The position numbers and the translations under genes are program-made. From NCBI GenBank assembly GCA_030606485.1, contig JAUWGH010000005.1, positions 150,001-182,000 of the forward strand: a stretch of 32,000 bases of DNA, read 5' to 3'. Numbering within the stretch: the stretch's first letter is position 1; each line of letters starts with the position of its first letter. Shown piece after piece: positions 28,571-32,000 of this stretch. This DNA comes from Promethearchaeota archaeon (GTDB lineage: Archaea > Asgardarchaeota > Lokiarchaeia > Sigyniarchaeales > SOKP01). The notes beneath the pieces are model-generated. The model searched no databases and had not been told where the DNA came from. It saw nothing but the letters and a program-made list of their open reading frames with translations.

Positions 28571-31500
28571 TTGAGTAGTTATTTAAAAACCAAGATAGTC
28601 GAAAAAATTAGGTTCGGAATCCTCTCTCCAGATGAAATACGTAAATTATCTAGTGCTAGAATAATTACTGCCGATACATATGATGAAGATGGTCTCCCTA
28701 TCCCATCTGGCCTTATGGATCAACGTTTGGGCACGATTGAACCTGGCCAACGTTGTCGAACGTGCGGAAATCTTGTAAGTCAATGTATGGGACATTTTGG
28801 TCACATCGAAATGGCAAGACCCATTATTCATTGCGGATATGCAAAGAAGGTTTTAAAGATCCTCCGTAGCATATGCCCAGAATGTTCAATGCTCATGCTC
28901 ACACATGAAGAAAAGGAAAAATCCATTAAAGAACAAGAGAAACATCGTGAGATGTATTTTGAAAGTGATGTAGAATTAACTAAGTTAATTTTTAAATCAG
29001 CGAGAAAAACAAAAAAATGTCCATATTGTGGAGCAAGAAAGAAAAAAATTGTTATTGAGAAACCAACTACTTTTTATGAAGAGGAGGAGGGTAAAGGTTC
29101 AAGAAGATTGACTCCAATGGATATTAGAGAAAGGTTAATACAAATTTCTGATAATGACCTTAGAATTATGGGAATCTCTCCAGCTTCTGCTAGACCAGAA
29201 TGGACAATATTGGAGGTTTTACCCATCCCACCAGTTTGTGTTAGACCTTCAATTACTTTAGATAGTGGAATTAGATCGGAGGATGATTTAACTCATAAAT
29301 TAGTTGATGTAATCCGTATAAACCAAAGATTGAGAGAAAATCTTGACGCTGGCGCACCACATCTTATTGTGGAAGACCTGTGGGAACTTTTACAATACCA
29401 TATTACAACATATTTTGATAATGAAGTTTCTGGAATTCCTCCTGCACGGCATAGATCTGGTAGAGCCTTAAGAACAATTACACAGAGATTAAAGGGTAAG
29501 GAGGGACGATTTAGAAGTAATTTGAGTGGAAAACGAGTAGATTTTTCCGCCAGAAGTGTAATTTCACCTAATCCTCATATTAGTATTAATGATGTTGGAG
29601 TACCAGTCAGTATTGCAAAAATACTCACAATTCCATCAAACGTAAATCCTTGGAATATTGAAGAGATGAAACAACTGGTTATAAATGGACCTATTGATCA
29701 TCCGGGAGCAAATTATATAATAAGAACTGATAATCGTAGAATAGATCTCCGATATGTTAAGAATAGAGATGTAATTGCAGAAACTCTAGTGCCTGGTTAT
29801 ATTGTTGAAAGGCACCTTAATAATGGAGATTTAGTTTTATTTAATCGCCAACCTTCACTCCATAGAATGTCAATTATGGCTCATGAAGTAAAAATTATGG
29901 ACGGAAGAACATTTAGATTAAATTTGACAATTTGTCCTCCATATAATGCAGATTTTGACGGGGATGAGATGAATTTACATGTCCCACAGAGTGAAGAGGC
30001 AAGGACTGAAGCAGAATTACTTTTAAAAGTTCAAGAACATATGTTATCTCCTCGTTTTGGTGGACCAATAATAGGTGGAATTCAGGATTTTATATCTACT
30101 GTTTATCAATTTACAAGTAAGGACTCTGTTTATAATATTAAGGATACTTTAAAATTATTATATTTAGGTAGAATATTTGACACAAATCCAGATTTTTCAA
30201 TAAATGATTTAACACCAGTAATAACTGATCCAGAACCAAAATATTCTGGAAAGTCAATTTTTAGTGCATTATTTCCAAAAGACTTAAATTTACGGCAAAG
30301 ATCAAAGTTTTGCAAGAAATGTGACGTATGTAAAGAGTATGATTGTGAATTTGATGCATATGTTCATATTGAAAACGGGAATTTGTTAACTGGAACTATT
30401 GATGAAGCAACTTTTGGAGCAATGAAACCAAATAGTATTTTACACCGAATAATAAAAGATAATGGAAATGAAAGAGGGAGAGTGTTTTTGGATAATTCGA
30501 TACAAATGCTCCTTCATGTAATCAGAATGAATGGGATTACTATTGGTCTAGATGAAGTTTTTGTAAAAGGTGATGCAATGGAAGAAATCATAAATGCTCT
30601 AGATAAAGCAAATATAGAATGTGAAGAACTCATAAAAGCATACCATAATAAAGATGACACTATTTTATCTCGAGCCCCAGGAAGAACTTTAAAAGAAACT
30701 TTGGAATTAAGAATTAGAGGGATATTAAACGATGCAAGAAAGAAAGCTGAAACGATTGCCTCCATTGATATTGGAGATCAAGCCCATTCGGTTATAATGA
30801 CAAAGTCTGGAGCGCGAGGTAATCCTCTAAATCTTGGTCAAATGGCTGCAGTGGTTGGGCAACAAGCAATTCGGGGAGAAAGAATACATCGAGGTTATAT
30901 GAAGAGAACATTACCTCACTATAAGATTAATGATCTCTCTGCTAAAGCAAGAGGATTTGTTTCCTCATCATATCGAAAAGGTTTAAATCCTGAAGAGTTT
31001 TTCTTCCATTCAATGGGTGGTAGAGAGGGACTTGTTGATACTGCTGTTAGAACCAGTCAGAGTGGATATATGCAAAGAAGGTTAGTTAATGCATTACAAG
31101 ATGTAATTGTTGAAAATGATAATACTGTAAGAGATGCTAATAAGAGTATTGTTCAATTTCAATTTGGCGATGATGGAATTGACCCCTCTAAGAGCGACCA
31201 TGGTTTAGCAATAAACCTTGATCTTTTAATATTAAAAGCCAAAGCGTTAAAATCTATCAAGAAAATACCAATTATTAAAACTTCGGTGAAAAAAGCACCA
31301 GTGAAAAAAGCACCAGTGAAAAAAGCACCAGTGAAAAAAGCACCAGTGAAAAAAGCACCAGTGAAAAAAGCATCAGTGAAAAAAGTTCCAGTAAAAAAAG
31401 CATCAGTGAAAAAAGTTCCAGTAAAAAAAACAAAAAAAAAAATTCTAAAGCAACCAACGAAAAAAGATAAAAAAAGTCCTGATGAAGAATCTATAATCCA

Positions 31501-31600
31501 AGAATTTGAAAATGAAACGGGGAAAAAGGCAATCTGGCGTGGAAAACAAACAAAACAATTTAATGAATGGAAAAAAGAAAAATATGGAGTTAAAAAATAA
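28571..31600 (+). CDS. rpoA1: DNA-directed RNA polymerase subunit A' (Rpo1N) with a ~120-aa C-terminal extension
   Basis: FGILSPDEIR, CRTCGN...CMGHFGH, KGKEGRFRSNLSGKRVDFSARSVI, LFNRQPSLH, YNADFDGDEMN (catalytic), HSMGGREGLVDTAVRTSQSGYMQRRL. Core ends near GDDGIDPSKSDHG (H877). Confidence 0.98.
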   Translation: MSSYLKTKIVEKIRFGILSPDEIRKLSSARIITADTYDEDGLPIPSGLMDQRLGTIEPGQRCRTCGNLVSQCMGHFGHIEMARPIIHCGYAKKVLKILRSICPECSMLMLTHEEKEKSIKEQEKHREMYFESDVELTKLIFKSARKTKKCPYCGARKKKIVIEKPTTFYEEEEGKGSRRLTPMDIRERLIQISDNDLRIMGISPASARPEWTILEVLPIPPVCVRPSITLDSGIRSEDDLTHKLVDVIRINQRLRENLDAGAPHLIVEDLWELLQYHITTYFDNEVSGIPPARHRSGRALRTITQRLKGKEGRFRSNLSGKRVDFSARSVISPNPHISINDVGVPVSIAKILTIPSNVNPWNIEEMKQLVINGPIDHPGANYIIRTDNRRIDLRYVKNRDVIAETLVPGYIVERHLNNGDLVLFNRQPSLHRMSIMAHEVKIMDGRTFRLNLTICPPYNADFDGDEMNLHVPQSEEARTEAELLLKVQEHMLSPRFGGPIIGGIQDFISTVYQFTSKDSVYNIKDTLKLLYLGRIFDTNPDFSINDLTPVITDPEPKYSGKSIFSALFPKDLNLRQRSKFCKKCDVCKEYDCEFDAYVHIENGNLLTGTIDEATFGAMKPNSILHRIIKDNGNERGRVFLDNSIQMLLHVIRMNGITIGLDEVFVKGDAMEEIINALDKANIECEELIKAYHNKDDTILSRAPGRTLKETLELRIRGILNDARKKAETIASIDIGDQAHSVIMTKSGARGNPLNLGQMAAVVGQQAIRGERIHRGYMKRTLPHYKINDLSAKARGFVSSSYRKGLNPEEFFFHSMGGREGLVDTAVRTSQSGYMQRRLVNALQDVIVENDNTVRDANKSIVQFQFGDDGIDPSKSDHGLAINLDLLILKAKALKSIKKIPIIKTSVKKAPVKKAPVKKAPVKKAPVKKAPVKKASVKKVPVKKASVKKVPVKKTKKKILKQPTKKDKKSPDEESIIQEFENETGKKAIWRGKQTKQFNEWKKEKYGVKK
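31286..31435 (+). repeat. In-frame 15-bp tandem repeat (GTGAAAAAAGCACCA) encoding VKKAP-type pentapeptides
   Basis: Five identical units (31286-31360), then VKKAS, VKKVP, VKKAS, VKKVP (to 31420) and a degenerate VKKTK (31421-31435). Confidence 0.97.

Positions 31601-31621: not shown

Positions 31622-32000
<379 letters not shown>

Follow-up and report, generated by a model that had tools for sequence, protein, structure and literature searches.

The window analyzed here is a stretch of 32,000 nucleotides from Promethearchaeota archaeon (contig JAUWGH010000005.1, positions 150,001 to 182,000 of the forward strand). Near its end lies rpoA', the gene for subunit A' of the archaeal RNA polymerase, and the last 39 residues of its product are the small module examined in this work. 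The open reading frame (ORF) at 28571..31600 (+) encodes an RpoA' protein of 1009 amino acids (aa). Its residues 8-869 match the Pfam families PF04997, PF00623, PF04983, PF05000, and PF04998 with E-values from 1e-96 to 5e-29. The rpoA'' gene begins 27 nucleotides (nt) past rpoA', at 31628, and matches positions 59-132 of the Rpb1 domain 5 profile (E 2.8e-23, Pfam). The ordered Rpb1 domains 1-5, the split within domain 5, and the location of rpoA'' directly 3' identify the protein as archaeal subunit A' (Rpo1N). The longest rpoA' frame opens with TTG at 28571, and Pfam domain 1 is matched from aa 8 onwards. The features of the locus are as follows.

28571..31237, + strand: rpoA' core with Rpb1 domains 1-5, about aa 1-889 (Pfam)
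31238..31480, + strand: Lys-rich disordered linker, about aa 890-970 (Tandem Repeats Finder, Pfam)
31481..31597, + strand: predicted terminal mini-domain, aa 971-1009 (alignment, profile searches, AlphaFold2)
31598..31600, + strand: TAA stop codon of rpoA'
31628..31999, + strand: start of rpoA'', which continues past the window end (Pfam Rpb1 domain 5)

The RpoA' core ends in ...DHGLAINLDLLILKAK, common to all orthologues. The frame extends about 120 aa beyond this point, first as the linker and then as the last 39-41 aa, which are not of low complexity. Within the linker, a repeat at 31286-31429 (period 15 bp, 9.6 copies, 89% matches by Tandem Repeats Finder) encodes VKKAP/VKKAS/VKKVP, and an A-run is located at 31423-31442. 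The linker also gave weak HC2 (E 2.7e-4, below the cut-off) and Extensin matches in Pfam, both of which reflect low complexity only. Among 19 RpoA' orthologues the linker varies from 32 to 88 aa in length and from -2 to +28 in net charge, and its repeats differ by genus (VKKAP, KKAPA, TPKTKQP, or K/E-rich). The present linker, at 68 aa, is the longest of its genus (32-38 aa in three further members), and the (VKKAP)n repeat is therefore a recent expansion. A 60-aa ORF on the minus strand (31275-31457, …LFSLVLFSLV…) is simply the Lys-codon repeat read in reverse complement and is almost certainly not a gene.

Conservation and predicted fold of the terminal module

Residue 971 (Asp) starts at nt 31481 and the final codon ends at 31597. 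An earlier note on this DNA had placed the tail at 31481-31600, and both these coordinates and its 39-aa string proved exact by codon positions. The alignment of 78 module copies (A1) yielded the consensus FExETGKxAIWRGKxTKxFxxWK. Thr994 (module position 26) is invariant in all 78 copies, followed in conservation by K985 (K17, 95%), G991 (G23, 91%), A987 (A19, 90%), T983 (T15, 88%), and G984 (G16, 87%), and aromatic residues occupy positions 979, 989, 997, and 1000 (module positions 11, 21, 29, and 32). The RpoA' tail carries the complete family pattern, Aromatic-x3-T-G-K-x-A-[IVY]-[WY]-x-G-x2-T-x2-[FY]-x2-[WYF], together with the predicted helix-hairpin-helix.

In relatives, the tail is kept at the RpoA' C-terminus with E-values down to 1e-21 and 55-95% identity, and the module ends the protein in all 19 of the orthologous tails, across several genera. 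In the W-R-G-K columns, Arg is present in 19/19 and Gly in 18/19 of the RpoA' orthologues, and the frequencies in the whole family are 51% for Arg, 91% for Gly, and 63% for Lys. Since the module is kept while the length, charge, and repeats of the linker diverge, selection acts on the cap rather than the 'H1-like' tail. In a second family of the same order the RpoA' tail bears three modules (L033 at G025:C15; P0019), and in the L033 and P0019/P0016 copies Tyr/His replace Trp/Arg (AIYHGK, AVYHSK, AIVRGS). The searches and the alignment confirm that the RpoA' tail is a genuine conserved module, far beyond what chance would produce.

An AlphaFold2 model built on the A1 alignment (model m0349e3df9270) had a mean predicted local distance difference test (pLDDT) score of 88.2 for the single module, with helices at module positions 4-15 and 27-37 and, between them, a two-residue hairpin (20-25). 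This fits the description in the earlier note of a tail that leaves low complexity and adopts a helix-loop-helix. In the RpoA' tail the predicted elements are located as follows.

31484..31519, + strand: helix 1, acidic, aa 972-983, EESIIQEFENET (AlphaFold2 helix 4-15)
31532..31549, + strand: mini beta-hairpin or turn with W-R-G-K, aa 988-993 (AlphaFold2 strands 20-21 and 24-25)
31553..31585, + strand: helix 2, basic and aromatic, aa 995-1005, KQFNEWKKEKY, N-capped by T994 (AlphaFold2 helix 27-37)

The last 37-39 residues of RpoA' are thus predicted to be an independently folding mini-domain. Most of the invariant positions seem to be structural: T-G caps a helix, the Gly forms the turn, the Thr acts as N-cap, and the aromatics make up the core. 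The remaining conserved positions are basic. A tandem pair, consisting of a W-type and then a Y-type copy from repeat proteins of roughly 420 aa, was modeled with a pLDDT of 89.6 and a predicted template modeling score of 0.76; here helix 2 of the first unit continues directly into helix 1 of the second.

Neither the single-module nor the tandem-pair model had a PDB match below E 2.3 in Foldseek, no PDB fold was a convincing match for either of them, and a shape search of the ESM Atlas returned only module-bearing proteins of the same lineage and chance short matches. Feature searches of the Atlas found nothing. At the sequence level, the RpoA' tail had no match in Pfam (E<=10) or NCBIfam (E<=1), and the sole phmmer match among PDB sequences, to a ribosomal protein, was one of low complexity. 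Searching PDB sequences with the A1 and A2 profiles (hmmsearch) yielded nothing meaningful, and no Lsr2, H-NS, or other DNA-binding chain. A scan of viral contigs with a degenerate ETGK[KN]AIWRGK DNA pattern gave 0 matches, and literature searches found no description of the tail or the module, nor of Lsr2 in Asgard archaea. Judged by these searches, the module appears to be an undescribed domain family for which no Pfam or NCBIfam family, solved relative, or paper was found. With about 35 aa, this new family would be readily studied by nuclear magnetic resonance and peptide synthesis.

Distribution and host proteins

When the 41-aa tail was searched against this genome, four further module copies were found. 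Two of them form an N-terminal tandem in a protein of 248 aa (G000:C12; L002 1069-1815, - strand) whose central part is acidic and whose C-terminus is a zinc ribbon (CxxC...CxxC); across the family this two-module protein is kept as frames of about 260-280 aa. The other two belong to adjacent paralogues of 286 and 291 aa (G000:C8:52460-54660; L004 1477-2337 and L005 1468-2343), in which one N-terminal module precedes a ribbon-helix-helix (RHH)-like segment, a HisKA-like segment, and a receiver domain; one Atlas cluster contains 374 members of this architecture. Each of the four proteins that carry the module in this genome is of the transcription or DNA type.

The earlier note had mentioned similar motifs at the ends of other Lokiarchaeal proteins as a sign of a mobile module, and the wider searches bore this out, with many unrelated hosts. 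Among genomes of the same order, 40 of 41 contained module matches, 1-10 per genome; some frames had the size of RpoA', and many others measured 60-650 aa. In an exhaustive phmmer search, 62 matches at E<=1e-3 were obtained among 1.84 billion representatives, with up to 8 copies per protein; P0004 and P0020 were rejected as false positives of the FG-GAP repeat type, so 60 of the 62 are valid. In the phylum sample, the A1 profile was found in 25/25 genomes of the window's family, in 2/2 of a second family of the same order, and in 0/123 genomes of the other 25 families. The named database matches were 'Lokiarchaeia/Promethearchaeota' hypothetical proteins. As far as these searches reach, the module family is restricted to one archaeal order.

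The usual place of the module is at a terminus, behind a flexible linker of low complexity. One or two C-terminal modules follow long low-complexity linkers in ribosomal protein eL13 (P0029), a Ras/Roc GTPase (P0013), and a BBS-like beta-propeller protein (P0027). Further hosts are RHH-HisKA-receiver regulators (several per genome), one RHH/LRR protein, GIFT (IFT52-like) domain proteins with an RHH-like segment, Zn-ribbon and SWIM-finger proteins, a histone-H1-like repeat protein (P0123), a methyltransferase-like protein, AAA+ (CbbQ/MoxR-type) and ABC ATPases, a NosD-type surface protein with a cytoplasmic tail, and proteins with four transmembrane segments. Stand-alone module peptides of 46-110 aa were also found. 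A 'C-terminal cap' subtype is near-identical on unrelated hosts; the RpoA' and P0027 copies, for example, share 66% identity.

A family of ~420 or 330 aa (P0007, P0002, P0067, etc.; L052 753-2015) consists of a 165-aa N-terminal domain and 2-3 tandem pairs of W-type (Trp-rich) and Y-type (Tyr-rich) modules, with Lys-rich linkers between the pairs. The family, including its 165-aa N-terminal domain, had no Pfam, PDB, or Atlas match. A role in chromatin or as a scaffold would be a candidate function for these proteins.

Possible ligand and role of the module

We tentatively favor, with a probability of roughly 0.45, the interpretation that the module is a tethered hook for a polyanion shared by its hosts, most simply nucleic acid, although this ligand is one that we infer. 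The RpoA' module is predicted to consist of an acidic helix, a Gly-turn hairpin with W-R-G-K, and a basic aromatic helix. It is connected to the A'/A'' split point by a disordered tether of 30-90 residues that evolves fast and is mostly rich in Lys. The lineage has attached members of the module family to many unrelated proteins, in most cases at one end of the chain and after a linker of low complexity, and each would serve as a binding 'hook' for an anionic ligand common to all hosts, most probably nucleic acid, be it DNA near the polymerase or RNA. The terminal place behind a flexible linker and the identity of up to 66% within the 'C-terminal cap' subtype suggest a single common ligand. 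A polyanion is favored because the conserved surface positions are basic, the neighboring sequences are Lys-rich, pairing with RHH segments recurs, and the carriers in this genome are all of the transcription or DNA type.

Several observations weigh against this interpretation. Neither sequence nor structure comparisons detected a DNA- or RNA-binding family for the module. For many hosts, a connection with nucleic acids is not obvious (the Ras/Roc GTPase, BBS-like, IFT52-like, and LRR proteins, ATPases, and membrane-protein tails), and such a spread of hosts is typical of localization or adaptor modules. As helix 1 is acidic, the whole module is close to neutral. The residues under the strongest conservation (the T983-G984 cap, G991, T994, and the four aromatics) look structural rather than ligand-contacting. 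Finally, the linkers of L027, L012, and L013 are of mixed charge or net negative, and a polycation that binds DNA is therefore not what the tail forms in every case.

To our knowledge, RNA polymerase large subunits rarely bear lineage-specific folded appendages. The known cases are the C-terminal domain of the bacterial alpha subunit and the repeat domain of eukaryotic Rpb1, both of which have a central part in regulation. The alpha C-terminal domain resembles the module in being a small helical domain connected to the core by a flexible linker, and it is free to reach flanking DNA or regulators. However, it belongs to another subunit, comprises about 85 aa of a helix-hairpin-helix type fold, and has no sequence relation to the module; moreover, the RpoA' tether is far longer than the alpha linker and repeat-rich. 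The functional likeness would be one of analogy only. With histone H1/HC2-type tails and the Rpb1 C-terminal repeat domain, the RpoA' tail shares a low-complexity tail of short tandem repeats on a nucleic-acid enzyme. In contrast to these, its repeat is not kept even within the genus and its conserved element is a folded cap, and the A' end corresponds to the middle of the Rpb1 equivalent, not to the Rpb1 C-terminus. The fusion of the module to RpoA' is a new form of a known theme, that of tethered RNA polymerase appendages particular to one lineage. An entire order of Asgard-related archaea carries such a mini-domain as a fixed part of subunit A', and the same domain is reused on eL13, transcription regulators, and several 'eukaryotic signature'-type proteins (small GTPases, LRR, and IFT-/BBS-like domains).

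Because many hosts lack a link to nucleic acids, a shared protein, cytoskeletal, or membrane target is a serious rival, if on balance an unlikely one. All modules would then bind one target other than nucleic acid, for instance the cytoskeleton, a hub protein, or an anionic membrane surface. RNA polymerase would be recruited or localized in this way, as would eL13, the GTPases, the regulators, the ATPases, and the membrane proteins. The extreme diversity of the hosts (Ras/Roc GTPases, LRR, BBS-/IFT52-like, AAA+, ABC ATPases, and membrane-protein tails) and the terminal position behind flexible linkers are consistent with this, and the near-identical 'C-terminal cap' on unrelated hosts (66%, RpoA' vs. 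P0027) again suggests one ligand. The Trp/Phe and Lys composition resembles that of interfacial membrane binders, although in a fold of 30 residues the aromatics are required by the core and are probably buried. The Y-type module (ETGKxAYYKGKPTxNF, A2 columns 39-58) resembles the phosphatidylinositol 4,5-bisphosphate-binding V region of syndecan-4 (LGKKPIYKKAPTNEF) at a non-significant E of 0.23, probably by chance. Against this rival, the four carriers in this genome are of the transcription or DNA type, and the conserved exposed residues are basic, which suits nucleic acid at least equally. In its boldest form, which we consider distinctly improbable, the module would be an order-specific universal 'address tag' gathering the polymerase, eL13, Ras-like GTPases, IFT52-/BBS-like proteins, regulators, and membrane proteins at one shared cell structure or hub. 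If true, this would represent a domain-based system of subcellular targeting or coupling in a prokaryotic lineage placed by database names among the Asgard archaea, and in one version a physical link between the transcription and translation machines that share the tag. The identity of the ligand would distinguish anchoring or steering of the polymerase via DNA or RNA contacts from such a shared cellular hub.

Comparison with Lsr2 and the hybrid-binding domain

The earlier note had interpreted the tail as a relative of the DNA-binding domain of M. tuberculosis Lsr2. In this reading, the module is an Lsr2/H-NS-type binder of the AT-rich minor groove, its R-G-K loop acting like the R-G-R of Lsr2, through either very remote homology or convergence; we consider it distinctly improbable. 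The Lsr2 peptide given in the note matches residues 13-43 of 2KNG exactly, and the gapless register holds, with I6, E8, G14, R20, and G21 identical (5/31) and F9/W9 and K22/R22 similar. The surroundings are AT-rich, the window having a G+C content of 29%. Like the module, the Lsr2 DNA-binding domain (PF23359; 2KNG, 6QKP) comprises about 35-40 residues arranged as helix, x-G-x loop, and helix; the Gly-Gly spacing is identical (7), the aromatic of helix 1 and [RK]-G-[RK] are in register, and the structural superposition spans the whole Lsr2 domain.

Profile methods did not support a family relationship. The Pfam Lsr2_DNA-bd model (PF23359) had no match at E<=10 to the tail or to any of the 78 copies, whereas the same hidden Markov model (HMM) scored the true Lsr2 peptide at E 2.5e-18 as a positive control. 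An alignment of 12 actinophage Lsr2-like proteins and the M. tuberculosis peptide was compared with the module by HHalign, which gave probabilities of 0.6% (local) and 0.07% (global), in a different register; three modes and a reversed control offered no support. The best ungapped local profile segment was at the level of column shuffles (p 0.43), and the fixed-register profile sum, with a z of 3.8, was the sole Lsr2 profile score to stand out. PF11774 (Lsr2) had no match above E 0.3 in this genome and none at the module loci. The module also differs in its acidic helix 1, a Trp-centered mini-hairpin in place of the Lsr2 loop, and an Arg that is not kept family-wide, and it occurs in an archaeal order, in contrast to Lsr2 of Actinobacteria and their phages. 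The bridging architecture of the Lsr2/H-NS type, an N-terminal oligomerization domain with a C-terminal DNA-binding domain, is absent, the module being fused to RpoA' and many other proteins. With neither an HMM nor a profile-profile signal (HHalign probability <=0.6%), the module is not a homologue of Lsr2 that can be detected by sequence. The earlier interpretation is partly supported: the mobile conserved module with its predicted helices has stood, and the relationship to Lsr2 has no support from sequence.

The canonical AT-hook consists of an unstructured R-G-R-P core with basic flanks. It was rejected as a description of the tail, as W-R-G-K-Q-T lies in a predicted hairpin, lacks Pro, and has no Pfam match. 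Taken together, the module should be annotated neither as Lsr2-like nor as an AT-hook.

A very unlikely origin is a degenerate N-terminal hybrid-binding domain of RNase H1 (Cauli_VI, PF01693), which would bind RNA:DNA hybrids or double-stranded RNA near the polymerase. The two share the string A-[IV]-x-R-G-x-x-[TP]-x-x-[YF]-x-x-W, and weak Cauli_VI matches recur on A[IV]xRGxxTxx[YF]xxW. The strongest sub-threshold matches are the copies in the L033/P0019/P0016 RpoA' tails of the second family, with a best score of 19.1 bits for the P0019 RpoA' fragment (E 0.0016, cut-off 21) and 17.7 bits for P0016; the two-module Zn-ribbon protein on C12 reached E 0.036, and 5/78 isolated copies matched. However, every match is below the curated cut-off and within profile positions 4-21 of 44 (best: 4-19), and the RpoA' tail of the window gives none. 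The predicted secondary structure also differs: the hybrid-binding domain has a strand at the position of the F..W segment, which is helical in the AlphaFold2 model, and half of the domain is missing from the module, including its third strand and second helix. No chain with this domain appeared in the PDB profile search, PF01693 had no relevant match in this genome, and no bona fide domain was found with it in 81 genomes of the phylum.

That the tail is a non-functional appendage, which arose when repeats expanded and the A'/A'' split was read through and whose terminal similarity stems from low complexity, would agree with the young 15-bp expansion in the linker (68 aa vs. 32-38 aa in the same genus), but is effectively refuted by the conservation pattern, since the terminal module is not of low complexity, is kept in at least 19 orthologues of several genera while the linker diverges, and has an invariant Thr, a conserved Gly and aromatic pattern, and a predicted fold.

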